Source: an uncultured Acidobacteriota bacterium
GTDB taxonomy: Bacteria; Acidobacteriota; Vicinamibacteria; Vicinamibacterales; UBA8438
Reading direction: 5' to 3'
Assembly: GCA_913043225.1 (NCBI GenBank)
Contig: CAJWLU010000002.1
Coordinates: 192,001-256,000 of the forward strand
Length of the DNA stretch: 64,000 bases
The position numbers and the translations under genes were made by a program. The notes under the pieces were generated by a model. That model was not told the origin of the DNA, did not search any database, and saw only the letters and a program-made list of their open reading frames with translations. This document shows positions 16,684-48,953 of the stretch, in pieces. Each line of letters starts with the position of its first letter. Within the stretch, counting starts at the first letter, position 1.

Positions 16684-16693
16684 GAGTCGCGCC

Positions 16694-18118: not shown

Positions 18119-18129
18119 AGGTAACGACC

Positions 18130-30615: not shown

Positions 30616-31476
30616 TCAGGAGCGGACGGCGGTGAGTCCGAACAGACCTGCGGAGGCGGTCTCCTCGTCCGACGCCAGGGAACTGTGTACTTCGATCTGT
30701 TCGAGGCCGGCTTTCCGCAGCGTCTCGGCCAGTTTGTCCGTCTCCCAAGCACAGGTCGACATGGCGTGTCGTTTGACCGCTCCTGAGGCGAGGTCCACGA
30801 CGTGCCAGCGTTCGGTGGCGGTACGCGACGCTGTGTCCCAGAACGGCTCGTGGAGTAGCAGGTGGGGGTGGGGTGAGAACAATCCGGCATCTAGGGTTTC
30901 CCAGGTGGGAATGCCCTCGCCCGTGTCCCGAACCGATTCGGCGAGCTGAGGTTCGAGGATCAATGTGCCGCCTGGCGCGAGCGCCGTCCCGGCCCGCGTG
31001 AGCAGCTCGCGGGCAATTGATCGGGGGAAGACGTTCAGCTGACCGAAGAGCAGCATCACCACGTCATACCCCTCGCCGAAGGCTGCGGTGCGGAGATCAA
31101 CCTCCTCGAACTCACAGTCGAGCACGTCTGTTTTGGCCACGGTGCGGGCATGGCGGATGGCGGCTGGTGCGAAGTCGAGGCCGCGTCCATGGTGACCGAG
31201 TTCGGCGAGCCCGTGCAGGTACAGTCCGGGACCACAGGCCAGATCTAATACGCGCCCCGTGGTGGGAGGCACACGGGCGGCGATGAACCGGAGTTGGGCG
31301 TCGATGACCTGCTGGCGTCGACTGGCCCGGTCGTGGTCCTGTGACAGATGTTCGACTAGCACCCGTTCGCTGAATGCCGGGTCATTCCATGGCAGGTTGT
31401 CGCCGTCCTGCCATGGCACGGCCGGAATCGCTCGACCGGCTATCGTCGCGAGCCGGCTCGCTTCGTTCGTGGTCAT
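30616..31476 (-). CDS. Class I SAM-dependent methyltransferase
   Basis: VLDLACGPG, GLDFAP, ALAPGG. Confidence 0.85.
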   Translation of the reverse strand: MTTNEASRLATIAGRAIPAVPWQDGDNLPWNDPAFSERVLVEHLSQDHDRASRRQQVIDAQLRFIAARVPPTTGRVLDLACGPGLYLHGLAELGHHGRGLDFAPAAIRHARTVAKTDVLDCEFEEVDLRTAAFGEGYDVVMLLFGQLNVFPRSIARELLTRAGTALAPGGTLILEPQLAESVRDTGEGIPTWETLDAGLFSPHPHLLLHEPFWDTASRTATERWHVVDLASGAVKRHAMSTCAWETDKLAETLRKAGLEQIEVHSSLASDEETASAGLFGLTAVRS

Positions 31477-31581: not shown

Positions 31582-33483
31582 TTACCGGGGCCGGTTGAGG
31601 GCGAAGACTACGCCGAACAGGACAACGCCAGCCGCATCGAGAATCGGCACCGGCAGGCCTGCGAGCGCCACCGAAGGTCCGGGGGCAAGGAGCAGTGCCG
31701 CGGCGCCGAACATGGCGATCCGGAGCGGGGCGGGCAAGGCTGTTCTGAGTTGGCCCGTGATCCCGGAGGCGAAGCAGAGCACGCCGAGGACCCCGATGAC
31801 CACCGGGACCAGCATTTCCGACGGACTGGCCGCATCACCGGTCGCGGTGAGCATCAGTAACTCGGGGCGGTACACGAAGATATAGGGCAGCGTGAAGCCG
31901 ACCAGGGCGAAGCGGAAGGCCGCCAGGCTGGTCTGCATGATGTTCGTACCGGCAATGGAGGCGGCGGCGTAGCCTGCCAGGGCCACCGGTGGGGTAACCA
32001 TCGACATCATGCCGAAGTAGAAGATGAAGAAGTGGGCGGCCAGAGTCACCACGCCCAGGTTTTCCAGCACGGATCCGATCAGAGTGGCCAGCAGGAGATA
32101 ACAGACGGCCGAGGGTAGGCCCATGCCTAGGATAATCGACGACACCATGATCAGCACCAGCGCGAGGAAGAGGCTCTGCTCGGCCAGCGGAAGGATCGTG
32201 GCTGGCAAGCGGGTGCCGATGCCGGTCAGGGTGACGATGCCGATGATGATGCCCACTGACGCCGACGCCGCCACCAGCGAAATGACATCACGGGCCGACT
32301 TGACGAAGGCCTTGAAGATAGCGCCTACCTCCAGACGGGTGCGCGGGTGGAATGCCCCCACCACCACGATGGCTAGCAGCGACATGCTTACGGCGCGGAA
32401 GGGCGTGTAGCCGACGATCAATAGCGTGATCAGAGTGCCGAGCGCGGTCACGAAGACCATCCCCTCGGGACGCAGCTCCGCCAGCGACTTGGTCTGGGTC
32501 GGCTCGGCGTCGTCGACCGAGGCGGTGGCGGAGACGCTTCGCGCCTGGAAGTGAGTGATCAGGAACAGCGACAGGTAGTACAGGACCCCTGGGATCAGGG
32601 CGGCGCGGATGATCTGGAGATAGGTTACCCCGGGGATGATCTCCAGCATCATGTAGGCGCCGGCGCCCATCACTGGTGGCATCAGCGCGCCGCCGGAGCT
32701 GGCGGCGGCCTGAATGCCTGCGGCCGTCGTCGCCTTGAAGCCGGCACTCCGCATCATCGGGATCGTAAAGGTGCCGGTGGTCGCGGTATTGGCCACCGCG
32801 CTTCCCGAGAGCGATCCCATGAGCCCGCTGCTGAGCACCGCCACCTTGGCCGGGCCGCCCGGGCTTCGGCCGAAGACCGACTGCGCGAAATCGATGATGA
32901 ACTTCGTAGCCCCGGTGGCGCTCAGGAATGCTCCGAAGATGACGAACAGGAACACGTACGTGAACATCACCCCCAAGGCCACGCCAAAGGTGCCCTGCGC
33001 TTGCAGGAACGTCTGTGCCACGATGCGGGGCAGCGTGTAGCCACGGTGGGGGAATAGCCAGTCGGGCATGCTGGGCCCGATATAGGCGTAGATCAGGAAG
33101 AGCCCGCACAGAATCGGGAGCGCCCAACCGAGCGATCGCCGCGCCGCCTCGATCACCAGTACGAGGCCGATGACACCCACCAGTATGTCGGTTGGCGTTT
33201 CGAATCCGGCCCGATTCCCGAGGGTCGACCCGTTCTGCCAGAACGCCTCAAAGTACGGCTCGTTCTGCATCATGACCCAGCCGCAGCAGGCAGCGGCGAG
33301 CAACGCCAGGACCACGTCGCTGGCCTTGGCTACCGGATGGTTTTTGAGCGAAGGGTGAAGCGGAACGTTGAGGAAGCAGATGACGAGCCCCAGCAGGGCG
33401 AATAGCGCTAGCTGGGGGAGCGGGGCCAGCAGCGGATAGTTCACTTGTACCAGTGTGAACACGCAAAGCCCGACCGCCAGCAC
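31582..33483 (-). CDS. TRAP transporter fused permease (4TM/12TM, TAXI-type)
   Basis: GGPAKVAV, SGSAVAN, MPPVMGAGAY, ILGMGLP, TPPVAL; start uncertain. Confidence 0.9.
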   Translation of the reverse strand: MLAVGLCVFTLVQVNYPLLAPLPQLALFALLGLVICFLNVPLHPSLKNHPVAKASDVVLALLAAACCGWVMMQNEPYFEAFWQNGSTLGNRAGFETPTDILVGVIGLVLVIEAARRSLGWALPILCGLFLIYAYIGPSMPDWLFPHRGYTLPRIVAQTFLQAQGTFGVALGVMFTYVFLFVIFGAFLSATGATKFIIDFAQSVFGRSPGGPAKVAVLSSGLMGSLSGSAVANTATTGTFTIPMMRSAGFKATTAAGIQAAASSGGALMPPVMGAGAYMMLEIIPGVTYLQIIRAALIPGVLYYLSLFLITHFQARSVSATASVDDAEPTQTKSLAELRPEGMVFVTALGTLITLLIVGYTPFRAVSMSLLAIVVVGAFHPRTRLEVGAIFKAFVKSARDVISLVAASASVGIIIGIVTLTGIGTRLPATILPLAEQSLFLALVLIMVSSIILGMGLPSAVCYLLLATLIGSVLENLGVVTLAAHFFIFYFGMMSMVTPPVALAGYAAASIAGTNIMQTSLAAFRFALVGFTLPYIFVYRPELLMLTATGDAASPSEMLVPVVIGVLGVLCFASGITGQLRTALPAPLRIAMFGAAALLLAPGPSVALAGLPVPILDAAGVVLFGVVFALNRPR

Positions 33484-33530: not shown

Positions 33531-34511
33531 TTACGGCCAGATTCCGATCTCCTGATAGAAGCGGATGGAGCCGGGGTGAAACTCTGTGCCGCTGTCACGC
33601 ACCACGTTGGCGGCCACGATGGCCCGACCGGCACCGTGGCGCTCCACCACGCTGGCCGCGTTCTCGTAGAGCGTCTTCGTGACGTTGTAGACCAATTCCT
33701 CGTCGGCGTTTGACGAGGTGATTAGGTGCATCGACCCGACGTCGAGTCCCTCGAACGCCTCGTTCTGGCCGCGGTAGGTGTCGGCTGGGATCGTCGCCGG
33801 GCGGAAGAACAGATACTCGTCGATCAGTCCCTGCTTGGCGGTCTCGTCGAAGGGAATGAAGTGGATGTCCTGCGACGCCGACGCCTGGGTGATGGCCGGG
33901 TTGGGAATCGCGCCGCCCACGAACACTGCCGCCGCCGAACCGTCGGCCAGCAGGTCGACGGCCCCGGACTGGGTGGCATTGACCGGGTCGAAATCGTCGT
34001 AGGTGATGCCATGCGCGCCGAGCAGCGGACGGATGAAGTACTCGAAGCCAGCTCCTGCCACGCCGACGCCGACACGTTCACCGCGCAGATCCGCCATCGT
34101 CTCGACACCCGAGTCGGTCGGCGTGATCCAGAGCGCGACATTGGGCGCCAGCGTCATCACCGTGCGCATCGGGTAGGCCTGGTCCCAGCCCTCGGTGCCA
34201 CGCACGGCGAAGTAGGTGATGGCGGCGTTCGATAGAGCGAAATCGAGCTCGCCGCTCACTAGTCGACGGATGTTCTCCTGCGAGCCGCTGGTCGCCTCAG
34301 CGGTGGTGTTCCAGCCAAAGCCGGCGCCGAACTCGTTCATGACCTCGGCCAGCGCGCTCCCGAAGACGAAGAAGGTCCCGCCCGGGGGCGCGGTGCCCAT
34401 ACTCACGAAGACCCGCGACGGCGCGTCATCGTTACCGCCACCGTCCCCGCCGCCGCACGCGACGGCGGTCGCGGCGAGAGTGAGCGCTATACAAAACCCA
34501 AGTCGACGCAT
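33531..34511 (-). CDS. TAXI family TRAP solute-binding lipoprotein
   Basis: Lipobox AVAC; GTAPPGGTF, TSGSQENI, IPADTY, FHPGSIRFY. Confidence 0.9.
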   Translation of the reverse strand: MRRLGFCIALTLAATAVACGGGDGGGNDDAPSRVFVSMGTAPPGGTFFVFGSALAEVMNEFGAGFGWNTTAEATSGSQENIRRLVSGELDFALSNAAITYFAVRGTEGWDQAYPMRTVMTLAPNVALWITPTDSGVETMADLRGERVGVGVAGAGFEYFIRPLLGAHGITYDDFDPVNATQSGAVDLLADGSAAAVFVGGAIPNPAITQASASQDIHFIPFDETAKQGLIDEYLFFRPATIPADTYRGQNEAFEGLDVGSMHLITSSNADEELVYNVTKTLYENAASVVERHGAGRAIVAANVVRDSGTEFHPGSIRFYQEIGIWP

Positions 34512-34659: not shown

Positions 34660-35019
34660 GAAACCGGTCCGAAGATGGAGAGCAGGTGTCCGTCTAGATC
34701 CCGGAAGTTGGCGGCCTACTGGTCACGTTTCGTGGTGCGGCGAGAAATTCGATGCCGCGGGCCGAGAGTGTCACTTGGGCTTGGTTAACGTCGTCGACCA
34801 CGAACACGATTTCCGTGTCGTGTGCGACCGGCTCGGAGAGTTTGGCGTGCGCCGTGCTCAGCGTCAGCGTGATCCCGCCATTACCAAGAAACACGGACCC
34901 CTCGCGTTCTGAGACTGCATCGCACGATCGAGCGTTTCGACGTAGAAGTCGACCGACCGGACCAGGTCCGTCGTGCCCAGCATGACCTTCGAGACACCCT
35001 TGAGCTTGACGTTAGTCAT
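34660..35019 (-). pseudogene. VOC/glyoxalase family pseudogene
   Basis: Three frames: MTNVKLKGVSKVMLGTTDLVRSVDFY / FLGNGGITLTL...IVFVVDDV...RGIEF / *AANFRDLDGHLLSIFGP. Confidence 0.7.
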
Positions 35020-36334
35020 CGGCCGAATCCTTCACCACGAACCGCCGCGATTTCAGTTCGAATCGAGGCAGCGTACCCGCGTCGACGGCGCACACGGGCA
35101 CGGTCAGACCGAGTGCCTCCTGCACCACCTGACCGACCCTGGCGGCGACCGTCTCTGGTTCGCCCGTCGTCGGCGCAACCTCGACTTCGATCGACAGCTC
35201 GTGGAGCGGACTCGTGGCGTTCACGGTCGAGCGGAATTCGGTCACTTGGGTTACCTGTCGAACTAGCGCTTCGATCGCAACCGGATAGACGTTGACTCCT
35301 CGCACACAAACCATGTCGTCCGCGCGTGACAGCACCCCGCCCTCGATCTGGCGGAGTGTACGGCCGCATGTACAGGGCGTCGATCGAAGTCTGACGATGT
35401 CCCTGGTGCGGTAGCGAATGACGGGGCTGGCGATGCGCCCCAGGTTGGTGACGACGAGCTCCCCTGGCTCGCCCTCCGCCGCTGGCCGGTCCGAGCCGGG
35501 ATCGAGGAGCTCACAGATGAACTGCGTCTCGTTTAGGTGAAGCGCGCCCGGGTGTTCCCAGCACTCGAAGCTCACCGGGCCCACCTCGGTCAGTCCGTGG
35601 TGATCGATCACCCTGGCGCCCCAGCCTTGCTCGATCTGCCAGCGCGTGGCGTCGATGCTGCCGCCTGGTTCTCCGGCGACCACGATGGTGCGCACCGTCG
35701 AGATGGGCAGATCTAGGCCCATGGCCCGCGCCACCTCGAGAAGACGGAGCGCATAGGTGGGGGTGCAGCAGACGACCTCGGGAGCCACCGCGTCGAGGAG
35801 CTTGAGCCTGGTCTCGCTCGACATGCCTCCCGCCGGCACGACTCGGGCCCCGAGCTGAGTCGCCGCGTCGAAGGCCGACCAGAACCCGAGGAACGGTCCG
35901 AAGCCGAACGGGAACAGGATAGTGTCGCCAATCCCGATGCGGGCGGCGTGGAACACCGAACGCCAGCAGTCGGCGACCCAGCGCCAGCTCTCCGGAGTGT
36001 CGAGCCAGCGGAGCGGCGGGCCGGTGGTGGACGAAGTTTGGTGATAGCGGGTGTAGCGGGTCAGCGGTTCGGTGTGCGCGGTGCCCCAAGGAGGCGTGGC
36101 TGCCTGGTCCGATGCGAGCTCCTGCTTCGTGGTTAGGGGAAGCCGCGCCAGGTCTTCCAGGGTACGGATCTCGCTGAGATTGACCCCAGCGGACAGGAAT
36201 TTCTCCGTATAGAAGCGATTCGTGCCGTCCACTGCACCGAGTAGCTCCGTCAGTCGGACGAACTGCTGGTGCCGACGTTCGTCACTCGAGAGGCACTCCG
36301 ACGGGGGCGGTGCCCACCGCGGGTCGCCCGTCAT
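35012..36334 (-). CDS. Phenylacetate-CoA ligase (PaaK)-family aryl-CoA ligase
   Basis: HQTSSTTG, DHHGLTEVG, IRYRTRD, RADDMVCVRGVNVYP, LPRFELKSRR. Confidence 0.88.
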   Translation of the reverse strand: MTGDPRWAPPPSECLSSDERRHQQFVRLTELLGAVDGTNRFYTEKFLSAGVNLSEIRTLEDLARLPLTTKQELASDQAATPPWGTAHTEPLTRYTRYHQTSSTTGPPLRWLDTPESWRWVADCWRSVFHAARIGIGDTILFPFGFGPFLGFWSAFDAATQLGARVVPAGGMSSETRLKLLDAVAPEVVCCTPTYALRLLEVARAMGLDLPISTVRTIVVAGEPGGSIDATRWQIEQGWGARVIDHHGLTEVGPVSFECWEHPGALHLNETQFICELLDPGSDRPAAEGEPGELVVTNLGRIASPVIRYRTRDIVRLRSTPCTCGRTLRQIEGGVLSRADDMVCVRGVNVYPVAIEALVRQVTQVTEFRSTVNATSPLHELSIEVEVAPTTGEPETVAARVGQVVQEALGLTVPVCAVDAGTLPRFELKSRRFVVKDSADD

Positions 36335-36795
36335 AACGACCCTGCTCCCGGTGCTTCCGTGAAGCGCTCGGCGATTTCGGCCGGGATGGGCGTGCCCCGC
36401 ATCGGCTCACCGGGCACTTTGGTGACGCAAGCGATGGTGAGGGCGCCTCTCGCCACGGTATCTCCTGCCGACTTGATCTCGGCGGTGTAGGAGAGGCTCT
36501 TCCCCGACTTCCGCGCGATCCTGAGCACAACCTCGAACTCGTCCTCAAAGCGCAGCGGTCTCAAGAACTCGAAATTCGTGGCGACCCGAGGGAATCCGAT
36601 GCGGGCCGAGGGCGGCGCGATGCTCAGACCGGCTTTCCGCCACATGGCGTGTTCGGCTTCCTCCATGTACCGAAAGAACACGCTGAAGTGGACGATGCCG
36701 GCGGTGTCGGTCTCGTAGAACTGAACGCGACGCTTGAGGCGGAACTCGCTGATCGGAGTAAACATGGCAGGGGTTTGACCACTCCCGCCTCTCAA
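36331..36795 (-). CDS. Hot-dog acyl-CoA thioesterase (4HBT/YbgC family)
   Basis: RVQFYETDTAGIVHFSVFFRYMEEAE, PLRFED; alternative start ATG 36765. Confidence 0.88.
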   Translation of the reverse strand: MRGGSGQTPAMFTPISEFRLKRRVQFYETDTAGIVHFSVFFRYMEEAEHAMWRKAGLSIAPPSARIGFPRVATNFEFLRPLRFEDEFEVVLRIARKSGKSLSYTAEIKSAGDTVARGALTIACVTKVPGEPMRGTPIPAEIAERFTEAPGAGSL

Positions 36796-38045
36796 CTCGC
36801 CACCGGGGCCGGACGCGGGCCGCCCTGCGCCAGGTAGCTGTTCATCGCCTCGAACAGCGGTTGCAGGTCCTTGTAGACGTTTCCGACCAGAGCATCGACA
36901 AGTTGCGGCTGCAGATCTGGGTGCTCGCTAACAAACTCGCCGAAGTTGAAGGTCCGGTCGTAGAACGCCATGACCAAGTGCCGGAAGCTGTCCAGGCCGT
37001 GCCGCACGTCCCGTGTGTAGCTCTCGAATGCGGCGGCAGACACATCACCCTGATCGAGCGCCGTATGGATGGCGTCGGCCGCAAGTTCGCCCCCTTTGAG
37101 CGCGAGAAAGACACCGGATGAAAAGACGGGATCCAGGAACGAGAAGGCGTCACCGACCAGCACGAAGCCGTCGCCGGCCGCCTGGGTGGCCCGATAGCTA
37201 AACTCTCCGGTGACCCGCATCGGTCCCAGATAGGTGCCAGGCGTGATGTGGTCCTTGATCCAGGAGCATCCATTGGCCTCGCGGCAGAAGATCTCTTCAG
37301 GGTCGCGGCTGTTGCGATAGAGATATTCGTGATCCGCGACCAGGCCGACGCTTACGGTATCGTCCGCCAACGGGATGTACCAGAACCACCCTTTGTCGGC
37401 GATGTAGGCCACCGTCGTAGCGCCTTCGTCCAGTCCGGGGTCCCGTTTGGCGCCCTTGAAGTAGGTGAAGATTGCCAGCTTCTTGAGGTCAGGGTCTCGT
37501 CGTTTCCACCCCAGGCGGCTCGCTAGTAGGGTGTCGCGTCCGGTGGCGTCGACGACCACCTTTGATGACAGCTCCTCGGTTGTGTTGCCCGACTGCGCCG
37601 TGACGCCGACGACCTGGTTGCCGTCTCGAATGATGTCTTGCACCCGAACGCCCTCGCGCACCTCAACGCCGTGCGACGCGGCGTTCTCCAGCATCATCCG
37701 GTCGAAGTCGCTGCGCAGGATCTGCCAGGTGCTCGCGCATTCGTGCTCGATTGTTTGGAAGAAGTAGAACGGCTGACTGACCTTGCCCGAGGTCGACACG
37801 AACTGGACACTGTGTTTGAGCGGGCTCCCCGAGGTCTTCAGCCAGTCGAGTACCCCGAGGCGCTCGAAGCTGAACCAGGTGTAGGGCATCAGCGATTCAC
37901 CGATGTGATGCCTGGGGAACTGTTCCCGCTCGAGCAGGAGCACCCTGCGCCCGTGCTGCGCCAGCACTGTCGCCGTGGCCGCCCCGGCCGGTCCTCCGCC
38001 AGCCACGACCGCATCCCAGGTTCCGTTCGTGCTCATGCCGCTCAC
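36792..38045 (-). CDS. Flavin-dependent halogenase-like oxidoreductase
   Basis: GGGPAG, RHHIGES, Lys77 at the usual catalytic position, WFWYIP, GDAFSFLDPVFSSGV. Confidence 0.75.
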   Translation of the reverse strand: MSGMSTNGTWDAVVAGGGPAGAATATVLAQHGRRVLLLEREQFPRHHIGESLMPYTWFSFERLGVLDWLKTSGSPLKHSVQFVSTSGKVSQPFYFFQTIEHECASTWQILRSDFDRMMLENAASHGVEVREGVRVQDIIRDGNQVVGVTAQSGNTTEELSSKVVVDATGRDTLLASRLGWKRRDPDLKKLAIFTYFKGAKRDPGLDEGATTVAYIADKGWFWYIPLADDTVSVGLVADHEYLYRNSRDPEEIFCREANGCSWIKDHITPGTYLGPMRVTGEFSYRATQAAGDGFVLVGDAFSFLDPVFSSGVFLALKGGELAADAIHTALDQGDVSAAAFESYTRDVRHGLDSFRHLVMAFYDRTFNFGEFVSEHPDLQPQLVDALVGNVYKDLQPLFEAMNSYLAQGGPRPAPVAS

Positions 38046-38046
38046 C

Positions 38047-38628
38047 TCACACGAGTGGCAACACCTCGACGATGTCGCCGACTTTCCGACCCCCGCTCGC
38101 CATCTCCGTGCGGCGCCCGTAGAGCGTCCGTGACTCGCGCATCCAGAACACTCCCATCATCTCCGGGTTCGGTTCAAGAGCGAGGAACGCCTTCGCATGG
38201 CTGTCGTAGTTGAATCGCCTCTCGCGGAGCAGCCGCCCGAGAGGCACCTCGTTGCGCAGAATCTGCTGGGTCAGTTTCGTGCCGAACGCGTCCAGCTTGA
38301 TCCGGATTGCGCCCATCTCTACCGGTCGCCCCGTGTACTCCTGCACCAGTAGCACCCGCCTGAAATACCACCCGCCAAGCGTGAACGTGCCGAGTGCGCG
38401 GAGCACGACCCGTCCCCCGTAGTGGTGCTCCAGCCGGCTGGTCATATCCTCTCCATGGACCAGCAACGAATGATACGGGGCCGGGATTTGCTCCGGCGTG
38501 ACGATCTTCCAAATCGGCATTTCGATACCGGCGCGACCATAGACCTTGTCCAGCGGATACAGTGTGCCGCTGACTGATGACCGTTTCTTCGGCATGGTGT
38601 GGAGCCGTCGGACCGAAGAACTCGTCAT
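38047..38628 (-). CDS. Chorismate pyruvate-lyase (UbiC)-like protein
   Basis: HGEDMTSRLE, RRVLL, VPLGRLL, LYGRR parallel the UbiC motifs. Confidence 0.6.
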   Translation of the reverse strand: MTSSSVRRLHTMPKKRSSVSGTLYPLDKVYGRAGIEMPIWKIVTPEQIPAPYHSLLVHGEDMTSRLEHHYGGRVVLRALGTFTLGGWYFRRVLLVQEYTGRPVEMGAIRIKLDAFGTKLTQQILRNEVPLGRLLRERRFNYDSHAKAFLALEPNPEMMGVFWMRESRTLYGRRTEMASGGRKVGDIVEVLPLV

Positions 38629-38635
38629 TGCGGTC

Positions 38636-38662
38636 CTCCTGTCTCCTGTCTCCTGTCTCCTG
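38636..38662 (-). repeat. Tandem heptamer repeat (ACAGGAG) about 4 copies
   Basis: Plus strand CTCCTGT x3 + CTCCTG, between the radical SAM stop and the UbiC-like start. Confidence 0.85.
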
Positions 38663-38667
38663 GCGAG

Positions 38668-39999
38668 CTAGGTGTACCTAATCTTCGTGTGCTCTGGCAG
38701 GAAGAAGCGTGGCAGCAGACTGTCGACTCGGAGCAATCCGGCTCTCGTTAGTGCGACCTGTTCGCCGTCGGCTGCTAGCAAATAGCCGTCTCTACGCAGC
38801 GACGTGAGCGGCTCGCCGAAGCGTTCGATCACGTCGACGCCGTACTTCTGTCTGAAGGAGCCTGGCTGGATCGAGCCGAGCTTGAGCTGGAGCACAAACT
38901 CCCGGATTAAACGCTCTTCGTCGGTCGGTCTGAACGCCCGGTTGAGCGGTAGCTTCCCGCCCTGGACGGCTGCGGCATAGGGTCCCCACGTGTCGAGGTT
39001 CTGCATATGCACGCCGTTGACGTGCCCAAACGACGCTACCCCGAGCGCCGCGAGATCAGCCCCACGCCACAGTTGGTCTCGATAGACGAACCTGGTCCGA
39101 TCCGGTTGCTTGACTGCGGTGTAAGCGCTCCCGACGGTGTAGCCTGCTGCTTCGAGCGCGGCGAACGCCTCATCCACCCAGCGCCGCTTGGTATCCCAGT
39201 CGGCTACCCGTTCGGCGAACTGCCCGGTGCCCTGCAGCAGGTCGCTGCTGATTGTCGTGTTGTAGGGCAGCTCCATCTGATAGATGGTCACGCTGTCCGG
39301 GCTCATGTCGATGGTGCGCGCGACGGCGTTGCGCCACCGTTCGTCGGTGTCGCCCAGCATCCCGGCGATGAGGTCGATGTTGATCTGCGGAAAGTCGAGC
39401 GACTGCGCGAACCCGTAGGCACGAAAGATTTCGGCCGACCGGTGGGCACGTCCGTTCAGTTCGAGGACCTCGTCGTCGAAGTGTTCGAGGCCCAGGCTGA
39501 GCCGGGTGATGCCCATGTCGCGAATCTGGGCCAGCTTCGGTTCGGTCAGTGTTCCCGGCTCGCACTCGAACGTGATCTCCTCGGCGCTCGTCCATGGCGT
39601 CACGGCGGTGAGCCGGTCCACCAGGCTCTGCAGTTGCTTGACGGAGAGAAACGACGGGGTGCCGCCCCCGAAGTACACGAAGTTCAACGGGCGGCCGGCG
39701 ATGGCCGGTTGAGTGGCATAGAGCTCCCATTCGCGTGCCACCACATCGAGATACTCCGCGACCTCGCTGGCGTTCTTGTCGGTGTACACCCGGTAGTAGC
39801 AGAAGTGGCACCGTTTTCGGCAGAACGGAATATGGAGATAGAGGCCGAGCGGGACCTCGGCTGGAGGCTGGTTCAGGGCCGGCCGCGCCTCGGACTCCAC
39901 TGCCTCGTGTGTCCAGAGTGAGAAAGGTGGGTAGTTGGCGACGAAGTAGCTGCCGACTTCGGTGGAATCTGCCGGGCGGGTCGGTGAGGTGTCGCTCAT
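38668..39999 (-). CDS. HemN-like radical SAM enzyme
   Basis: LYLHIPFCRKRCHFC, YFGGGTPS, INIDLIAG. Confidence 0.9.
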   Translation of the reverse strand: MSDTSPTRPADSTEVGSYFVANYPPFSLWTHEAVESEARPALNQPPAEVPLGLYLHIPFCRKRCHFCYYRVYTDKNASEVAEYLDVVAREWELYATQPAIAGRPLNFVYFGGGTPSFLSVKQLQSLVDRLTAVTPWTSAEEITFECEPGTLTEPKLAQIRDMGITRLSLGLEHFDDEVLELNGRAHRSAEIFRAYGFAQSLDFPQINIDLIAGMLGDTDERWRNAVARTIDMSPDSVTIYQMELPYNTTISSDLLQGTGQFAERVADWDTKRRWVDEAFAALEAAGYTVGSAYTAVKQPDRTRFVYRDQLWRGADLAALGVASFGHVNGVHMQNLDTWGPYAAAVQGGKLPLNRAFRPTDEERLIREFVLQLKLGSIQPGSFRQKYGVDVIERFGEPLTSLRRDGYLLAADGEQVALTRAGLLRVDSLLPRFFLPEHTKIRYT

Positions 40000-40051
40000 G
40001 CTCGAAATATACCTGTGTGCCGACGATGGGGTCAGATCGGCCCGTCCGAGA

Positions 40052-41185
40052 CTAGCCGAAGCAATACAGCACGCCGTCGCCGGACCCGATTACCAACTTG
40101 CCCTCGGCGATCGCCGGCGACGCTACTAGCGGGGCGGCGGTATCGAACTCCCACAGTTTCTCTCCGCTCTCGAGATCTAGGACATAGAGACGTCCGTCGC
40201 TCGAGCCGGCATAGACGCGGTCGCCGCTGGCCGCTGGAGACGAGTCCACTCTGGCGCGGGTCGTGAACGTCCACTTCGCTTCGCCAGTCGCCTCGTCGAT
40301 GGCGTGGACCATCTTGTCCCGCCCACCGACGACGATGGTCCCGTCGATGGCTAGGGCCGAGGAGTAGTAAGGGAAGTGGCGACGCGGATGTTCGTATCGC
40401 CACAGCAGTTCGTGGGTTTTGAGATCGAGACCAATTACTTCGTTGTCGTAGGTGCCGAAGAAGACCTTGCCGTCGCTGATGACCGGTGACGCGATAGTAT
40501 AGGCGCCCGCCGAGACTGCCACCACCTCCTCACCATCGCTGACCCGCACGCCGTGGAAGATCTCGTCGCATCCCCCGAAGTAGGCGATACCGTCGTGCAC
40601 GGCGGGTGTGGCGTGCACGTAGTTCGCAGTCTCGTACTGCCAGGTCATCGAGCCGTCTTCTATGGCAAGCGAGTAGAGGAACCCGTCGTAGGAGCCGATC
40701 ATGACGTGGTCGCCCACGATGACCGGTGACGACTTGATTTCGCCGAGCGTCTCGTAGGTCCAGCGCGCCTCGCCGGTCTGGACGTCGATGGCGTGGAACA
40801 CCCCTCCCAGGTCGCCGATGAACACCAAGCCGTCAGCCACCGCTGGCGATGATTCACCGATGCCCATGTCGCCGGTGGAATAGGTCCACTTCTCCTCTCC
40901 CGACTCGAGGTCAAGCGCCACTACTGTGCCCGCCCAGGTGCCAAAGTAGACGGTGCCGTCGACGATGGCCGCTGACGAATCGATGGCTTCGTCAGCCTCA
41001 TACGTCCACTGCAGCGTGAGCTCGGCCGGCAGCGTGGAGCCGGAGACACCGGTGAGAGAGGTATTGCCCCGGAACTGTGGCCAGGCGTCTGGGGAAGTGG
41101 TGGTGGGCCCCTGGGCTCCCAGAGGGCTGACGAGCCCGAGCGCCCCGAGGGTAAGTGCTGCGAAGGCCGTAACTAGAACGCGCAT
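40052..41185 (-). CDS. Secreted PQQ-like repeat beta-propeller protein
   Basis: Signal peptide; WPQFRG; repeated SSPA...G.V.....G.L.A.D..TGE..W units. Confidence 0.88.
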
Positions 41186-42363
41186 CGGTATACCTCCAAA
41201 GCGTGCGCTGCGGTGAGCGGCCGCGGATTGAACGTGCCGGTCCACTGCTGGGCGGCATCCTCGGCCAGGACTGGGAGCGCGTTTTGCTCCACCCCTTCCG
41301 GTCCGAGGCGGGCTGGCAGTCCGCCGAGCGTGGCCAGCGTGCGCAGTCGCTCAGCGAGCCGTGCGCTGGCCTGTTCACTGTTGGCGGCGTCCACGAGACG
41401 CGCATACAGTGCTCCCGCGGTCTCGCCGTTCCAGCGAACCACATGTGGAAGCAGAATACCTAACGCGACGCCGTGGGTCATCCCGTAGCGGGCGGTCAGG
41501 GGGTTGGCCAGGGCGTGGGCGGCGCCCAGCATCGACTGCTCGATGGCCCAGCCGGCGTGGAATGCCCCCAGTTGCATGGCGGCGCGGGCCTCTATGTCGT
41601 CGGGCGTTGTCAGCACTCGCTCATAGGCGCCTTCGAGCAGTCGCCAAGCCTCGCGTGCCAGCGCCTCTGAGAGCACAGTGCCTCGCGTAGTCACCGCGGT
41701 CTCGACTGCGTGGGCGATTGCGTCGAATCCTGACGTCGCAGTCACCCTGGCAGGTTGCGACAGGGTCAATGACGGATCCAGTAGTGCGACGCGGAAAGCG
41801 GCCTTAGGGTCGCCGCAGGCCATCTTGAGGTGCGTGGTCGCGTCGGCGATGACGGCGTAGCTCTGTGCCTCGCTGCCTGTTCCGGCCGTGGTTGGTACCC
41901 CGATCATCGGCAGCATTGGTCGGTTCGCCTTACCGTAGCCCCGGTAGTCGGACATCGCGCCGCCGTTGCTGAGTAGGAAGTTGATCCCCTTGGCACAGTC
42001 CATGGAACTGCCGCCACCAAGCCCCACGATCCCATCAATCCCCAGGGGGTGGGCCAGCGCGCACCCTGCCTCGACCATCGCGGTGTCGGGATTGACGTCG
42101 AACTCGTGGAACCGGTTCACCGTGAGTCCCGCATCACTGAGCAGCCGCTCGGCGACCGCCACGTGACCCGCGTCGACCAGTCCCTGGTCGGCGACCAGGA
42201 GCGGCCGCTGGAATCCCAATTCTGCCGCGACTGTACCGAGGCGCTCCATCACGCCTGCCCCGAACAGCAGTCGCGTTCGCGGTTCGAATTCGAAGGCCGT
42301 CGAGACTGGCCGTGGGCTATCGGTCAGCGCGTCTGACGCCAGGGGGTCGCTGGTAGCGGCCAT
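41173..42363 (-). CDS. Iron-containing alcohol dehydrogenase
   Basis: [37 protein letters not shown]. Confidence 0.9.
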
Positions 42364-42379
42364 GAGGTGGGGTGTGGGG

Positions 42380-45300
42380 TCAGAACAGCAGCTTGATTCC
42401 AAGCTGCAGTCGGCGTGCCGGCTGAGCCGAGAGAATCTGGCCGAAGGTTGGCGAACCGAGGAAGGCATCGGGCAGGTTGAAATTGGTGCGGTTGAACAGG
42501 TTGAACGCTTCGAGTCGAAGCTGCAGGTCGGTCGATTCGCTCAGGCCGACCCGCTTGAGCAACGCCAGGTTGACGTTGGCGAAGCCGGGGCCATCGAAGC
42601 CGTTGCGCGGACTGTCCCCAAAGGTGCCGAAGGCTGGAAATGCGAACGCGTCGGTGTTGAACCACCCGTCGGGGCTAGGGTTCTCTGCCGCGGCGCTGTC
42701 CACCAGATTCGGGCGGTCGTTGGCGCCAAAGCCGAGAGCCGCGCGTCCGGTGTTGCTGTTGTCGATCTCGGGGAGCAGCGCCACCGTGAAGGGGCTGCCA
42801 CTTTGCGTCGAGATCACCCCCGCCAACTGCCAGTCGCCGAAGACGCTCGCTAGCCCGCCCGTGTCCCCCTGGTTCCGTCCGTAGGGTAGCTCGTAGGCGA
42901 AGCTCACAGATAGGCGGTGGCGGACGTCGAAGTTGGACCGGCTGAACTCGGCGTCCGGATTGTTGCTGTCCTGAGGGAAGTTCGGGTCTCCGGCGCTCGA
43001 GAAGAAATCGGATCCGTCGTCCTCGGACTTGCCGAGCGTGTAGGCGGCCAGTAGGGACAGGCCACTGCGATAGCGCTGTTCACCGGTGATCTGCACTGCG
43101 TGATAGCGTGACCGGCCCCGTGACTCGAGTGACACGATATCTGCAAAGAGCGGGTTGGGACGTAGATTCAGAGGGTTCGGGCTGGCGTCAGCCTGATTGA
43201 TGTCGCGCCCGCGGAGCAGATTGTTCCCGCGCGAGCCGACGTAGGCCATCTCGATCGAGCGCCCTGGTCCGATCTCCTGCTGGACGGTCGCGTTCCAGTG
43301 TTGCAGGTACGGCGTCTCGAGGTCGCGCTGAATCGTTAGCGCCGACGGCGGCAGCGCGAATGGGAAGAAGCTCGGGAACGGATCGAATAACGTGAGCGGG
43401 AGCCCAGGTAGCGGGAAGAACAGGTTGAAGTCAAAAAACGGTGGGTTGAAGTAGAGCCCCTCACCCGGTGCCAGGGCCGCCTGATCGTAGTAGACCCCCC
43501 AGCCGCCGCGGATGATTGTCCGGCCACCGTTGAGGGCCAGCGCGGCGCCCAGCCGCGGCGCCAGGTTGTTACGGTCGGGGTCGTAGCCGGCGCGTGGGAT
43601 GCCGCCGGTGCCCACCGCGACGAGTGAGCCGGTGGCCGGGTCGTAGACATTAGCCCGGTCGTCGGCGTCCACGGCGGGCGAGGCATAGTCGTAACGGAGG
43701 CCGGCCGAGACGGTCAGGTTCGACCCGATCTGGATGTCATCCTGGACGAACAGGTTGTAGCTCGAGGTGCGCAGCTGCTGCGGGTTGTCGAGGCGTGCGC
43801 CGCCGGTTACCAGAGGCAATCCCAGCAGCAGGTCAGCGAGCGCGTTACCGGTGAACGCCATCGGGAACGATGAAAAGGTCAGGAGCCCTCTCGACTGGAC
43901 GTCCCGGAAGGCGTCTTGCTGCGTGAACTGCAGGTCGGCGCCGAATTTGAACAGGTGCGCTCCGCGGGCGTAGGTCAAAGTGTCGAGGACCTGCACCGTG
44001 CCGGTGCTACTGTCCTGCGGATTGTTGTACTCGTCCCCCAGCGGCGAGTAGCCGGTGATCGTGATGAAGCTTAGGCCGTGGTCGCGGACGTTGTCCGAGA
44101 GCTCTGGGAGGCCAAGCGCCTGATTTAGGCTGTTCCCGCTATTTTCGTGGAAGGCGGCGCTCGAGACCCGGGTGTAGCTCACGCGCAGGTCGTTGACGAC
44201 AGACGATGACATGACCCCGGTGAAGCTGCCGAGCACGTTGTGGGCCCGTTGCGGCACGTTCGTGCCGAAGCCCGGTACTTGGCTGAAACCGGGACCCGAG
44301 AACGGCTCGTAAAAGTCACGGTCGGCCACGCTGTAGCGCAGCGTGAGGTTCGACGAAGGTCCGGCCCGGTGGTCGATGCGCGCGTCGAACTGGTCGTTGC
44401 GGTCGGTCAACAACGGCGAGGACACGTAGTTGGCAAATGGCGCGTCGCGGTTCGGGAGAGGATAGAGATTGGCAATCGCTTGCCCGATCGGATTGATGAA
44501 CGGCGCTGGCAGCTGACTGCCGGGGAACGGGAACGGCGTACCGGGCACGAGCGGGGCGGGAAACAGGCTGTCCGAGAAATCGCCCTGGCGCTCGGCTAGG
44601 GTGGGGACGTTGGTCACTCGCGTGATGCTCTCCCGCAGCCGCGTCCCTTCGTAGTCGACGAAGAAGAAGGTCCGATCTTCGATCAGCTTGCCACCGAGTG
44701 AGCCGCCGAACTGGTTCCGTCGGTAGTCTGGGTCCGGCTCGCCCTGGGGAGCATAAAAATTGGAGGCGTTGAGCGAGTCGTGCCGAAAGAACTCATAGAG
44801 GGTACCGTGGAACTGATTGGAGCCAGCCTTGGTGATGACGTTGATCTGCGCGCCGGCGTGTCGGCCGTAGGCGGCGTCGTAGCTGCCGGTCACGACCCGG
44901 AATTCCTCGATCGCGTCGACTGGGGGACGGACCGCCACCGTGTTGAGCTTGGGGTCGACGTTGTAGGCGCCGTCTAGGAGGTACGCGTTCGCCCCTTCCC
45001 GGGCGCCGTTGACGTTGAGCGTGAAGGCACCCCGCACCGAGCCAGCTGAGCCCTGTGCGGCCGTCGTGGTGCCCGGGACGAGCAATGACAGGTCCAGGAA
45101 GTTCCGGCCGTCGAGCGGCAGGCTGGTCACCTGTACGTTGTCGATGACGGTGCTCAGGCCGTGCGCCGCGAACGCCACGGTTGGTTCCCCCGTGACCACA
45201 ACCTCCTCGGAGACCGCGCCGACCTCCAGCGTCAGCTGGAGCTGAAGTTGTTGACCGACCTGCAGGGTCGTCTCGCGGATCAGTCTACGATGTCCGCTGG

Positions 45301-45544
45301 CAGCCGTCTCGACCCGGTAGCGGCCCGGTGCGAGCTGGGACACCGCGAAGCGACCCTGGTCATCGGTCGTCGCGGTACGGGCCAGCGCCGTGGCTTCGTC
45401 GACGACCGTGACGTCGGCGTTTTCTACCCTCGCTCCCGTGGCGTCGGACACCGTGCCGCGGATGACAGCAAGATGGGTCTGTGCCGTTGCGCCGACGCCC
45501 CCAAAAAAGACAAGAGCGGCACCGGCAAGGGTTCGTTCGAACAA
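42380..45544 (-). CDS. TonB-dependent receptor (Oar-like) with carboxypeptidase-regulatory-like N-domain
   Basis: GTVSDATGA, LPLDGRNF, RNQFGGSLGG, LRLEAFNLFN, terminal LGIKLLF. Confidence 0.9.
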   Translation of the reverse strand: MFERTLAGAALVFFGGVGATAQTHLAVIRGTVSDATGARVENADVTVVDEATALARTATTDDQGRFAVSQLAPGRYRVETAASGHRRLIRETTLQVGQQLQLQLTLEVGAVSEEVVVTGEPTVAFAAHGLSTVIDNVQVTSLPLDGRNFLDLSLLVPGTTTAAQGSAGSVRGAFTLNVNGAREGANAYLLDGAYNVDPKLNTVAVRPPVDAIEEFRVVTGSYDAAYGRHAGAQINVITKAGSNQFHGTLYEFFRHDSLNASNFYAPQGEPDPDYRRNQFGGSLGGKLIEDRTFFFVDYEGTRLRESITRVTNVPTLAERQGDFSDSLFPAPLVPGTPFPFPGSQLPAPFINPIGQAIANLYPLPNRDAPFANYVSSPLLTDRNDQFDARIDHRAGPSSNLTLRYSVADRDFYEPFSGPGFSQVPGFGTNVPQRAHNVLGSFTGVMSSSVVNDLRVSYTRVSSAAFHENSGNSLNQALGLPELSDNVRDHGLSFITITGYSPLGDEYNNPQDSSTGTVQVLDTLTYARGAHLFKFGADLQFTQQDAFRDVQSRGLLTFSSFPMAFTGNALADLLLGLPLVTGGARLDNPQQLRTSSYNLFVQDDIQIGSNLTVSAGLRYDYASPAVDADDRANVYDPATGSLVAVGTGGIPRAGYDPDRNNLAPRLGAALALNGGRTIIRGGWGVYYDQAALAPGEGLYFNPPFFDFNLFFPLPGLPLTLFDPFPSFFPFALPPSALTIQRDLETPYLQHWNATVQQEIGPGRSIEMAYVGSRGNNLLRGRDINQADASPNPLNLRPNPLFADIVSLESRGRSRYHAVQITGEQRYRSGLSLLAAYTLGKSEDDGSDFFSSAGDPNFPQDSNNPDAEFSRSNFDVRHRLSVSFAYELPYGRNQGDTGGLASVFGDWQLAGVISTQSGSPFTVALLPEIDNSNTGRAALGFGANDRPNLVDSAAAENPSPDGWFNTDAFAFPAFGTFGDSPRNGFDGPGFANVNLALLKRVGLSESTDLQLRLEAFNLFNRTNFNLPDAFLGSPTFGQILSAQPARRLQLGIKLLF

Positions 45545-47030: not shown

Positions 47031-48953
47031 CTACACATCGAGCGCGTCGGCGTCCTCGGCGTGGTCCATGATGAAGCGAAAACGCGCCGAGGCATCCCGT
47101 CCCATCAGGTCGCTGATGACCCGGTCGGTGTGGATCTGATCCGCGACTCCCACCCGAAGCAGCCGACGGGTCTTCGGGTTCAGGGTGGTGTTCCAGAGGA
47201 TCTTGGGCATCATCTCGCCGAGTCCCTTGAACCGCGTCACTTCGGCCCGTGCCCGGCCTTTACTCTTGCCGAGATCGGAGAGCACCTCGTTCTTCTGTCC
47301 ATCATCCAGGGCCCAGAAGGTCTCCTTTCCTGCGTCGATCCGGTAGAGCGGAGGCTGGGCGAGGTAGACCTTGCCGTTGGTGATGAGCTTGGGTAGATAC
47401 CGATAGAGGAAGGTCAGCAGTAGCGTGGCGATGTGATTGCCATCGGCGTCGGCGTCGGCCAGGATGATGAGTCGGTCGTAGCGCAGTTTGCTCAGCTCAA
47501 AGTTCTTGCCCATACCGCAGCCCAGGGCCGTGACGAGATCCGAGAGCTCCTTGTTCTCGAGCACCTTTGTCAGCGGTGCGTTCTCGACGTTGAGCACCTT
47601 ACCTCGCAGCGGTAGGATCGCTTGATGGATGCGGTTACGCCCTTGCTTGGCTGACCCGCCAGCCGAATCCCCTTCCACGACAAACAGTTCGCTTTCCGCC
47701 GTGCCCGGCGAGGTGCAGTCGCTCAGCTTGCCGGGTAGGTTCAGCCGGTTCGAGGTGGCGCTCTTGCGAGAGACCGCCTGCTGAGCGGCGCGACTGGCCG
47801 CCCGGGCGCGGGCCGCCAGAATAATTCGCGCGACGATGCCCTCGGCCACGCTGATGTTGTGGTTCAGCCAGTGCTCGAGCGAGGGCCGAACAAGTCCGTC
47901 GACCACCCCGGCCAGCTCAGGGTTGTTGAGCCGGTCCTTGGTCTGTCCCTGGAACTGCGGGTCGGAGATGAACACGCTCACCACCCCGGTCATGCCTTCC
48001 CGAATGTCGTCGGTGGTTAACGTGACCCCCTTCGGACTCAGCCCGTGGGTGTCGATGAAGTTCCGGATGGCCTTGCCGAGGCCCGCGCGCAGCCCGTTCT
48101 CGTGGGTGCCTCCCGAGGCGGTCGGGATGCCGTTGACATAGCTCCGCAGGTGTTCGTCGGTGGACTCGGTCCATTGGAGGACGAGATCCAGCCTTGACGA
48201 GCTGGCTTCGTGTTCGCGGGTTAGCGCGAACGGGACGGGATGGACCGGCGTGGCCTCTCGGGTTTCGAGAATCTTGCCGAGAAAGTCCGACAGTCCTTCG
48301 TCGTGCTTGAATGTCTCGGTGCGTCCGGCCGCTTCGTCCTCGAACACGACGGTCACGCCGCGGTGCAGGTAGCTGGCGATCTCCAGTCGTTCGGCAATCA
48401 GGTCGGCGTCGAAAGCGGTCTTCGGAAAGATCGTGGGGTCGGGTCTGAAGAAGACGGTGGTGCCGGCGCCACGCGCCGCGCTGACCCGCTTCAGCTTGGT
48501 CGTCGGTTTGCCCTGGGCGAAGCGCTGTTCCCAACGGGCACCCTCGCGCTTCGAGGTGGCGACGAGCTCTTTCGAGAGGGCGTTCACGACGCTCGCCCCC
48601 ACCCCGTGCAGGCCGCCCGCCGTGCGATAGGTGCGATGCTCGAACTTGCCTCCTGCATGCAGGGTCGTGAAGATGACCTCCAGGGCGCTCTTGCGAGTTT
48701 TCTTGTGGGTGTCCACCGGAATGCCGCGGCCGTCGTCCGAGATCGTGACTGACGTCCCGTCGGTGTGCAGCGTCACTCCGATCCGGGTCGCATGGCCGTT
48801 CATTGCCTCGTCGACCGCGTTGTCCATTACCTCCCAGACCAGATGGTGGAGTCCGGCCGGACCCACGCCGCCGATGTACATGCCGGGGCGACGGCGGACC
48901 GGTTCCAGGCCCTCCAGAACGGTGATGTCCTTCGCTGTATAGCTCTTCTCCAT
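47031..48953 (-). CDS. parE: Type IIA topoisomerase subunit B (topoisomerase IV-like)
   Basis: LEGLEPVRRRPGMY, DNAVDE, HAGGKF, VEGDSAGG, PLRGK, DADADG, RFKGLGEM. Confidence 0.8.
   Translation of the reverse strand: MEKSYTAKDITVLEGLEPVRRRPGMYIGGVGPAGLHHLVWEVMDNAVDEAMNGHATRIGVTLHTDGTSVTISDDGRGIPVDTHKKTRKSALEVIFTTLHAGGKFEHRTYRTAGGLHGVGASVVNALSKELVATSKREGARWEQRFAQGKPTTKLKRVSAARGAGTTVFFRPDPTIFPKTAFDADLIAERLEIASYLHRGVTVVFEDEAAGRTETFKHDEGLSDFLGKILETREATPVHPVPFALTREHEASSSRLDLVLQWTESTDEHLRSYVNGIPTASGGTHENGLRAGLGKAIRNFIDTHGLSPKGVTLTTDDIREGMTGVVSVFISDPQFQGQTKDRLNNPELAGVVDGLVRPSLEHWLNHNISVAEGIVARIILAARARAASRAAQQAVSRKSATSNRLNLPGKLSDCTSPGTAESELFVVEGDSAGGSAKQGRNRIHQAILPLRGKVLNVENAPLTKVLENKELSDLVTALGCGMGKNFELSKLRYDRLIILADADADGNHIATLLLTFLYRYLPKLITNGKVYLAQPPLYRIDAGKETFWALDDGQKNEVLSDLGKSKGRARAEVTRFKGLGEMMPKILWNTTLNPKTRRLLRVGVADQIHTDRVISDLMGRDASARFRFIMDHAEDADALDV

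Follow-up and report, generated by a model that had tools for sequence, protein, structure and literature searches.

A conserved halogenase- and radical SAM-containing gene system of Acidobacteriota with a predicted role in tailoring a hydroxybenzoate-type acid

The 64,000-nucleotide stretch of DNA analysed here (the window) comes from an uncultured acidobacterium of the Vicinamibacterales (GenBank assembly GCA_913043225.1, contig CAJWLU010000002.1, positions 192,001 to 256,000) and is part of a 96%-complete genome. At positions 35012 to 45544 of the minus strand it carries a unit of eight genes that we tentatively read as the tailoring half of a conserved pathway working without a carrier protein. 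This reading, to which we give a little less than an even chance, holds that a 4-hydroxybenzoate-type acid would be turned into a benzyl alcohol that is probably halogenated and modified by a radical S-adenosylmethionine (SAM) enzyme; glycosylation of this alcohol and its export to the cell envelope would follow. What supports it is the set of genes and their folds, the conservation of catalytic motifs, the linkage in operons and the nested pattern of co-occurrence.

Read along the minus strand, the unit opens with an accessory gene for a TonB-dependent receptor of the acidobacterial Oar-like type (42380 to 45544; 1054 residues; Pfam OMP_b-brl_4, E 3e-228, plus CarboxypepD_reg). It continues with an iron-containing alcohol dehydrogenase (Fe-ADH; 41173 to 42363; about 396 residues; Pfam Fe-ADH), for which an aldehyde-to-alcohol step is predicted, and a pyrroloquinoline quinone (PQQ)-like/BamB-like beta-propeller (40052 to 41185; Pfam Beta-prop_ACSF4 and PQQ_2) with an apparent signal peptide and a likely periplasmic location. 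Then follow a HemN-like radical SAM enzyme whose subfamily has no name (38668 to 39999; 443 residues; radical SAM and HemN_C domains), a protein with a predicted chorismate-lyase fold (DUF98/UbiC-like; 38047 to 38628; 193 residues) that we regard as an optional supply gene, a flavin-dependent halogenase-like protein of the PltA/Bmp2/CndH/ChlB4 group (36792 to 38036; 414 residues; Trp_halogenase/FAD_binding_3 matches, motifs and fold), a YbgC/4HBT-type hotdog thioesterase (36331 to 36765; 144 residues; Pfam 4HBT) and an optional PaaK-like aryl-coenzyme A (CoA) ligase (35012 to 36334; 440 residues). With the most likely starts, the gaps from receptor to ligase are +16, -13, +52, +39, +10, +26 and -4 bp, and third-position GC content lies between 0.77 and 0.82 across all eight genes. 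An earlier note, made from the letters of this DNA, had described eight co-directional, packed genes here, and open reading frames, gaps and third-position GC content bear this out. It was also right about what the span lacks: Pfam and NCBIfam scans of 35012 to 45544 found no ketosynthase (KS) of a polyketide synthase (PKS), no non-ribosomal peptide synthetase (NRPS), no carrier protein and no prenyltransferase. None of the eight proteins reaches an NCBIfam equivalog cut-off.

The arrangement recurs widely. Among the best 80 of 149 related loci in a genome collection, some of them on short contigs, the neighbourhood contains the radical SAM gene in 78 cases, the thioesterase and the ligase in 77 each, the halogenase in 70 and the Fe-ADH in 52. 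The order of the seven genes from Fe-ADH to ligase, each with more than 50% identity to its counterpart in the window, is kept in 51 of these 80 loci, and the arrangement is therefore not a matter of chance. The boundaries drawn by the earlier note need to be moved, although its eight genes are real. Past the ligase, the unit extends into a gene of the VOC/glyoxalase family (34665 to 35019, end approximate), which a three-frame reading shows to bear two frameshifts in this genome and which has intact relatives in 13 of the 80 loci, and into a transporter of the TAXI-TRAP type, made up of a solute-binding protein (33531 to 34511; TIGR02122, above cut-off; 55 of 80 loci) and a fused permease (31582 to 33483; TIGR02123, above cut-off; 54 of 80), all on the minus strand. 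At the other end, the TonB receptor lies within 10 kb of the cluster in just 7 of the 80 loci. A methyltransferase gene at 30616 to 31476 was considered as a further member and rejected, as it accompanies the cluster in none of the 80. A scan for promoters and terminators gave results at chance level, and small shares of four RNA runs yielded scattered, low-depth contigs that include intergenic DNA, so that neither transcription nor co-transcription is shown by them. The radical SAM protein had no match in plasmids at E<=1e-40. About 14 loci (for instance L073, L077, L083 and L095) carry a CPA2-type cation:proton antiporter gene in the cluster, between thioesterase and ligase; there the TRAP genes are missing and the halogenase is displaced or lies beyond the DNA examined.

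A second group of genes belonging to the same system is found in the window 13 kb from the eight-gene unit, on the plus strand and facing it, so that the two units are convergent. It begins with an EhpF/GriC-type adenylating enzyme (15041 to 16144; 367 residues; PDB EhpF 3l2k/3hgu, E 3.5e-41), the core of the whole system, and ends with an ABC ATPase (18130 to 18801; 62% identity to an orthologue with an ABC_tran match) and a duplicated MacB_PCD/FtsX permease of about 1120 residues (18810 to 22169), both with approximate starts. Between them lies an EhpG/GriD-type acyl reductase of the aldehyde dehydrogenase (ALDH) fold (16694 to 18118; 474 residues; Pfam Aldedh on an orthologue, weak PDB ALDH hits), separated from the adenylating enzyme by an inserted DUF4399 gene (16150 to 16683; Pfam DUF4399) that holds the same position in L101, L106, L116, L117 and L119. 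The EhpF-type adenylating subunit thus adjoins an ALDH-fold subunit with a catalytic cysteine, as expected of such a pair; in the EhpG-like protein C289 is conserved, and HGPG stands where we take the glutamate motif of hydrolytic ALDHs to lie. In some relatives the radical SAM gene is immediately preceded by genes for an adenylating enzyme, an ALDH, a family 4 glycosyltransferase (GT4), an ABC ATPase and a giant FtsX permease. The window has four of these five at 15041 to 22169; the fifth, a GT4 with an N-terminal CxxC, maps to a different contig (C20:40365-41660 of genome G000). About 24 kb beyond the TonB receptor (G000:C2:261681-265366) there is a pair of propeller genes encoding 740 and 488 residues, the shorter of which is 56% identical to the propeller type that precedes EhpF in other lineages.

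Evidence that the two halves belong together comes from lineages in which they are joined. In three loci from other acidobacterial families (L130, L140 and L146), one operon reads EhpF-EhpG-FeADH-propeller-radical SAM-TonB receptor-halogenase-(SSS)-GT4-thioesterase-ABC-permease, without a UbiC-like gene or ligase, SSS being a transporter. Two metagenome loci show variants of this order: L162 reads SSS-EhpF-EhpG-FeADH-propeller-radical SAM-UbiC-halogenase-GT4-thioesterase, and L151 reads EhpF-EhpG-FeADH-radical SAM-UbiC-halogenase-thioesterase-ligase. These operons speak against the self-contained route ending in release that the earlier note had drawn: a reductase of the EhpF/EhpG type, an ABC/FtsX exporter and a GT4 share an operon with the tailoring genes elsewhere, and release by the thioesterase is probably not the end. 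Since the reductase occurs in the same operon, the Fe-ADH also acquires a role.

Co-occurrence across genomes follows the same lines. Within the source family, the EhpF-like gene is present in 24 of 24 genomes (80-96% identity), the radical SAM gene in 23 and the UbiC-like gene in 22. We then take a phylum sample of 301 Acidobacteriota genomes, in which EhpF-like and radical SAM proteins were counted at E<=1e-90 and UbiC-like proteins by profile with 11 candidates scored per genome; the counts are 71, 61 and 26, respectively. The EhpF-like gene is found in 59 of the 61 radical SAM genomes, where 14 would be expected if the two were independent (related genomes are not), and in one of the two exceptions it is split. 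All 26 genomes with a UbiC-like gene have both others, though that gene often lies elsewhere. In 80 chosen genomes (52 with the radical SAM gene, 12 with the EhpF-like gene only and 16 with neither), the halogenase occurs in 48 of the 52 and in none of the other 28, and the Fe-ADH in 49 of 52, 5 of 12 and 1 of 16, respectively. The thioesterase is found in 33 of 52 against 2 of 28 at E<=1e-22, a strict cut-off that misses known neighbours. Ligase orthologues occur in 23 of the 80 genomes (six with 34-40% matches were dropped), and 16 of the 18 genomes with a UbiC-like gene are among them, as the earlier note would lead one to expect in placing these two proteins together. Orthologues of the TonB receptor are present in 19 of 62 EhpF-positive and 2 of 18 EhpF-negative genomes (nine candidates scored per genome, one 44% match dropped). 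Because related genomes are not independent, these counts are patterns and not tests. The genes fall into three layers: a core of EhpF, EhpG, GT4, ABC ATPase, permease and propellers; a tailoring set of radical SAM enzyme, halogenase, Fe-ADH and thioesterase; and an optional supply, either the UbiC-like protein with the ligase or importers.

The system reaches beyond the phylum as well, with Planctomycetota and Verrucomicrobiota suggested by Atlas clusters and Nitrospiraceae and Lentisphaeria by source names. At least 598 radical SAM loci were obtained from metagenomes; in the best 80, mostly short contigs whose records carry no taxonomy, the halogenase was seen in 36, the UbiC-like gene in 33, the thioesterase in 23, the Fe-ADH in 17 and the ligase in 11. 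The readable part of transposon-sequencing supplements for Planctopirus limnophila and Verrucomicrobium spinosum contains no diagnostic names and allows no conclusion on essentiality.

The flavoprotein of the unit groups with the halogenases that act on thioesters, and not with geranylgeranyl reductases or monooxygenases, as judged from its sequence and its modelled fold. The hallmarks named in the earlier note are all there, namely GxGxxG (G13/G15/G18), the lysine K74, which aligns with that of CndH and Bmp2, and WxWxIP in the form WFWYIP (W217/W219/I221/P222). All 25 aligned orthologues (42-76% identity) and all 54 BLAST hits among loci L101-L246 share K74, W217 and W219. A grouping with reductases, which would have spoken against the note, was checked by profile and structure and did not appear: a profile of the family gives its ten best matches 215-339 bits and no reductase more than 101; the best solved relatives are CndH, FasV, Bmp2, Mpy16, PltA and ChlB4; and the model (predicted local distance difference test score, pLDDT, 90) superimposes in Foldseek on PltA, ChlB4, FasV and Bmp2 with template-modelling (TM) scores of 0.86-0.91, all of the top ten being halogenases. 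Apart from the unassigned structure 3nix, the closest structures are halogenases. The cluster holds no carrier-protein or flavin-reductase partner. In the absence of a carrier, CoA or an enzyme thioester would have to serve as the tether; the genome's one stand-alone acyl carrier protein (ACP) sits beside FabF. A complex prediction for the radical SAM enzyme and the halogenase scored 0.00, gave no verdict and was not used. One family genome has a second, diverged pair of these two genes (L126:9526-13247; 45% identity each), and similar second copies occur in a few other genomes.

For the UbiC-like protein, the earlier claim of a chorismate lyase-like enzyme holds for the predicted DUF98/UbiC-like fold; no Pfam hit was found at E<=0.01, PF04345 and PF01947 included. 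Its model (pLDDT 89) matches AF1396 (DUF98) with a TM score of 0.66 and UbiC with 0.54 in Foldseek, and the predicted fold is that of a chorismate lyase without a DNA-binding domain. Across 44 diverse members, M62, R90, P129-L-G131, R172 and E188 are invariant or nearly so, and this methionine, arginine, PLG loop, arginine and glutamate may correspond to the product-binding residues of E. coli UbiC. The family is large: a word search gave 886 proteins, and at E<=0.001 there are 1,583 representatives; the diverse alignment was too divergent for a contig scan, and PF04345 or PF01947 is annotated on 11-19% of the members of related Atlas clusters. A fusion of radical SAM and UbiC-like proteins exists in one lineage (P0305 and L147, 91% alike; 1 of the 80 metagenome loci). 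The closest solved structure to the ligase is PaaK (E 3e-55), yet the protein stays below the PaaK cut-off. The thioesterase residue D20 is kept in all 33 of its 34 hits that span this column.

The radical SAM gene is the most constant of the tailoring half. The CxxxCxxC motif of its product (C60/C64/C67) is invariant in 26 of 26 sequences, and its nearest solved structures, HemN and NocN, are distant; it scores below the NCBIfam cut-offs of HutW (175 of 400 bits, the best), HemN (165 of 325), HemW (143 of 205) and also HemZ. A MenK-type menaquinone methylase was considered and set aside on a weak score and the absence of the expected motif. At L023:1284-4300 the radical SAM gene occurs twice in tandem with equal scores, which may be an assembly artefact. 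The metal ligands of the Fe-ADH (D214, H218, H283 and H297) are conserved; the propeller falls below all NCBIfam cut-offs, and its signal peptide was read from sequence.

These data lend themselves to a stepwise model. The UbiC-like protein would form 4-hydroxybenzoate from chorismate, and the PaaK-like ligase would convert it into the 4-hydroxybenzoyl CoA thioester; lineages without these two proteins might import the acid via SSS, TRAP or TonB-dependent systems and tether it in another way. The halogenase would then place chlorine or bromine next to the phenol, the HemN-like enzyme would modify the ring, most likely by C-methylation, and the thioesterase would free the acid. Its reduction to the aldehyde would fall to the EhpF/EhpG-type pair and that of the aldehyde to the alcohol to the Fe-ADH, after which the GT4 would add a sugar and the ABC/FtsX machine would deliver the product to periplasmic propeller proteins.

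Several observations weigh against this model. The enzyme activities are predictions from sequence, folds and gene linkage. The ligase orthologue is absent from 27 of the 48 halogenase genomes and the UbiC-like gene from 30; both are consequently an optional supply module, and 4-hydroxybenzoyl-CoA cannot be the universal substrate of the halogenase, as the earlier note had supposed. The model does not account for substrate and tether in these genomes. Twelve of the 71 EhpF-like genomes have no radical SAM gene, so that the reductase/GT4/ABC core works alone there and its substrate may not be a hydroxybenzoate. The UbiC-like fold also matches non-enzymatic UTRA ligand-binding domains (TM 0.4-0.53). 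QhpG, a hydroxylase of the same flavoprotein superfamily, gives 162 bits with the flavoprotein, below its cut-off, and no flavin reductase of PF01613 was found in the 96%-complete genome, which has one PF03358 protein elsewhere. Finally, importers (TAXI-TRAP, SSS and a siderophore-type TonB receptor) are unusual for a product that is purely exported.

These importers bear on the best-surviving alternative, which we nevertheless consider unlikely: that the product, perhaps made by the same chemistry, leaves the cell and is taken up again as a diffusible cofactor or metal chelator, with the periplasmic PQQ-like propellers as its clients. The operons include importers (SSS or TRAP) and several propellers, and in several lineages a receptor of 720 residues inside the operon passes the TonB siderophore-receptor cut-off (251 against 223.5 bits). 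The window's own receptor type adjoins the cluster in L110, L129, L161 and L163, a CobW-like GTPase adjoins it in some genomes, and retention in 22 to 24 of 24 family genomes would suit a housekeeping molecule. The loci examined, on the other hand, contain no chelator machinery of the NRPS or NRPS-independent siderophore type, and the propellers score far below quinoprotein cut-offs. A bolder form of this idea, in which a halogenated cofactor or metal carrier derived from 4-hydroxybenzoate is exported by the FtsX-type ABC machine, recaptured via the TonB receptor and loaded on the 'empty' PQQ-like propellers of Acidobacteriota, Planctomycetota and Verrucomicrobiota, strikes us as quite improbable.

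Somewhat less credible than the cofactor or chelator in its general form is that the flavoprotein hydroxylates its substrate and, with a ring-methylating radical SAM enzyme, yields a catechol- or quinone-type head group, which would be prenylated where genes for a polyprenyl synthase and a cyclase are added. L217 and L218 do have the genes for the radical SAM enzyme, a DUF116-polyprenyl synthase, the UbiC-like protein and a cyclase-like protein in a row, and the tight pairing of halogenase and radical SAM genes (48 of 52), the relationship of the flavoprotein to QhpG and LodB-type maturases and the missing PF01613 reductase would all fit. Against it stand the invariant K74 and WxWxIP and the halogenase structures closest to the flavoprotein, 3nix excepted; moreover, in this genome no match was found for the prenyl genes that some members of the family carry beside the cluster.

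Two further explanations appear improbable to about the same degree. The first reverses the direction: an aromatic alcohol or acid would be imported, oxidised by the Fe-ADH and the glutamate-less ALDH via the aldehyde to a CoA thioester, and processed or detoxified. It can draw on the TAXI-TRAP, SSS, MFS and TonB importers, the CoA ligase and thioesterase, the VOC gene and the fact that an ALDH without the hydrolytic glutamate can be CoA-acylating, but catabolism offers no place for a halogenase, a GT4, an exporter or a protein with the chorismate-lyase fold, and the 80 loci show no recurrent genes for ring cleavage or beta-oxidation. The second keeps the eight genes as a self-contained route to a free halogenated, modified hydroxybenzoic acid, independent of the reductase and export half; the two halves are indeed separate, convergent units in the source family, the UbiC-like, halogenase, thioesterase and ligase genes move as a block (L231 and L232), and genome G262 has the radical SAM enzyme, halogenase and thioesterase with no EhpF-like match, yet 59 of 61 radical SAM genomes carry the EhpF-like gene, the halves are interleaved in single operons elsewhere, and the Fe-ADH would be without a role if there were no source of aldehyde. 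Two other candidates were rejected. A supply to the respiratory quinone does not fit, since menaquinone is made here by futalosine genes, a classical UbiC is lacking, the quinone would thus not call for 4-hydroxybenzoate, and the cluster has no UbiA. An aryl polyene, xanthomonadin or flexirubin pigment fails because the genome has one FabF (its one full KS match) and one stand-alone ACP, and hence no aryl-polyene PKS; no dedicated KS or ACP recurs in the 80 loci.

Some neighbouring genes deserve mention. An additional module, absent from this genome as far as found, accompanies the system in varying subsets at L121, L023, L026, L049, L058, L187, L195 and L219; its genes encode a GcvH-like protein, a CobW-like GTPase, a small cysteine protein, a 4Fe-4S protein, a second radical SAM enzyme, a DUF116-polyprenyl synthase, a prenyltransferase and a squalene-cyclase-like protein. 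Several lineages have, within or beside the system, a small membrane-like WGxYG protein without a Pfam hit in the one copy tested (L105:12733-13275, L110:2564-3046, L155:14854-15402 and L196:15625-16116). In the window, positions 1 to 9819 hold sulfatase-, two phosphodiesterase-, sulfotransferase- and CysQ-like genes and an ATP sulfurylase/APS kinase gene, named from their sequences, and the block from sulfatase to APS kinase likewise lies upstream of the EhpF-like gene in L102, L106 and L117. On the minus strand, a type II topoisomerase pair (47031 to 51529; ParE/ParC- or gyrase-like, read from sequence) is often directly upstream of the Fe-ADH in relatives, its B subunit in 24 of the 80 loci. 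A 936-residue protein at 55329 to 58139, also on the minus strand, has, besides an AMP-dependent ligase, a carrier domain and what looks like an acyltransferase domain; it is one of three PP-binding matches in the genome, and no link to the cluster was seen in relatives.

The radical SAM gene is present in about a fifth of the Acidobacteriota sampled (61 of 301), mostly with the halogenase, and is near-universal in the source family; this is how a housekeeping trait is spread, in contrast to an antibiotic cluster of sporadic occurrence. Provided that the halogenase is active, such bacteria might be an overlooked, steady source of organohalogens and candidate makers of orphan halogenated aromatics of sponges and planctomycetes. 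Should the cofactor or metal-carrier explanation prove true, halogenation would belong to the core metabolism of bacteria that abound in soil and ocean, and would supply natural organohalogens on a wide scale. The system also brings to light a still unnamed HemN-like subfamily and a halogenase that would act without a carrier protein, and it gives a lead on the roles of PQQ-like propellers and giant FtsX permeases in these phyla, while its nested gene profile indicates which enzymes to assay first.

As the earlier note had surmised, the combination matches no described pathway in the literature we examined, which leaves out most subscription papers. Each part has its place in an enzyme family already known, and clusters of a similar kind have been glimpsed; undescribed in the searchable literature are the product, the pathway as a joined whole and its near-core distribution. 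The closest parallel is provided by the Halo_AMP clusters, 840 uncharacterised clusters from sponge and seawater metagenomes with 16% of families assigned to Acidobacteriota, which are defined by Trp_halogenase and AMP-binding domains within 5 kb (bioRxiv 10.64898/2026.08.03.742642). The window falls under this definition (PF04820 at 117 bits and PF00501 at 39 bits, less than 0.5 kb apart). According to the accessible parts of that preprint, Halo_AMP clusters resemble the window in their halogenase (with Bmp2 as the commonest match), aryl-CoA ligase (BagE/YtkN-like), radical SAM enzyme, PQQ-like domains, thioesterase, glycosyltransferase and TonB receptors; the focal cluster CC A, proposed for barettins, differs in having cytochrome P450s. 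The word 'chorismate' does not occur in its main text, and the parts seen contain neither an EhpF/EhpG pair nor a phylum-wide profile.

Like bmp and like baaA/baaB of Planctomycetales strain 10988, the window pairs a flavin halogenase, for which 4-hydroxybenzoate is the proposed substrate, with a neighbouring chorismate-lyase-like gene; baaA/baaB are assigned to 3,5-dibromo-p-anisic acid, an assignment untested genetically (bioRxiv 10.1101/723874, seen in part). The comparison with bmp made in the earlier note does not carry over to the halogenase, however: BaaB, the brominase fed by a chorismate lyase, was compared with Bmp5 (about 44%), and the window protein is Bmp2/PltA-like, set apart from Bmp5 by description only. 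No ligase, thioesterase, radical SAM enzyme, reductase or glycosyltransferase is described for the baa locus in the accessible part of that source. Alichondrichlorin of Alienimonas chondri likewise unites 4-hydroxybenzoate and chlorine, but according to the portion available to us its chlorine sits on an alkyl chain and its benzoate is an unreduced ester, unlike the product proposed here (PMC11848864). A review, likewise available in part, counts it among five planctomycete compound classes and gives its genes as unknown (PMC12078418).

At the level of single enzymes, PltA, Bmp2, Mpy16, ChlB4, CndH and FasV, which we take to be carrier-dependent halogenases, have the fold (TM 0.81-0.91), catalytic lysine, WxWxIP motif and size of the window flavoprotein, which differs from this group in its identity of about 30% and in the lack of a carrier protein in the cluster. 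The window's radical SAM enzyme has the CxxxCxxC motif, HemN_C domain and architecture of HemN, NocN, ChuW/HutW, HemW and MenK; YQMELP and a C-terminal RY motif set it apart as a subfamily of its own. The reductase pair shares the two-protein division into adenylation and reduction with EhpF/EhpG (EhpF structures PDB 3hgu/3l2k) and with GriC/GriD. As far as the accessible parts of the sources go, GriC/GriD adenylate and reduce 3-amino-4-hydroxybenzoate in the grixazone pathway (PMC10179220), and a table lists EhpF/EhpG for D-alanylgriseoluteic acid (PMC11278526). Unlike these two systems, the acidobacterial loci examined have no genes for phenazine or aminohydroxybenzoate (AHBA) synthesis, and their EhpF-like pair is far more conserved, with 60-96% identity across the phylum and linkage to GT4, ABC/FtsX and propeller genes.

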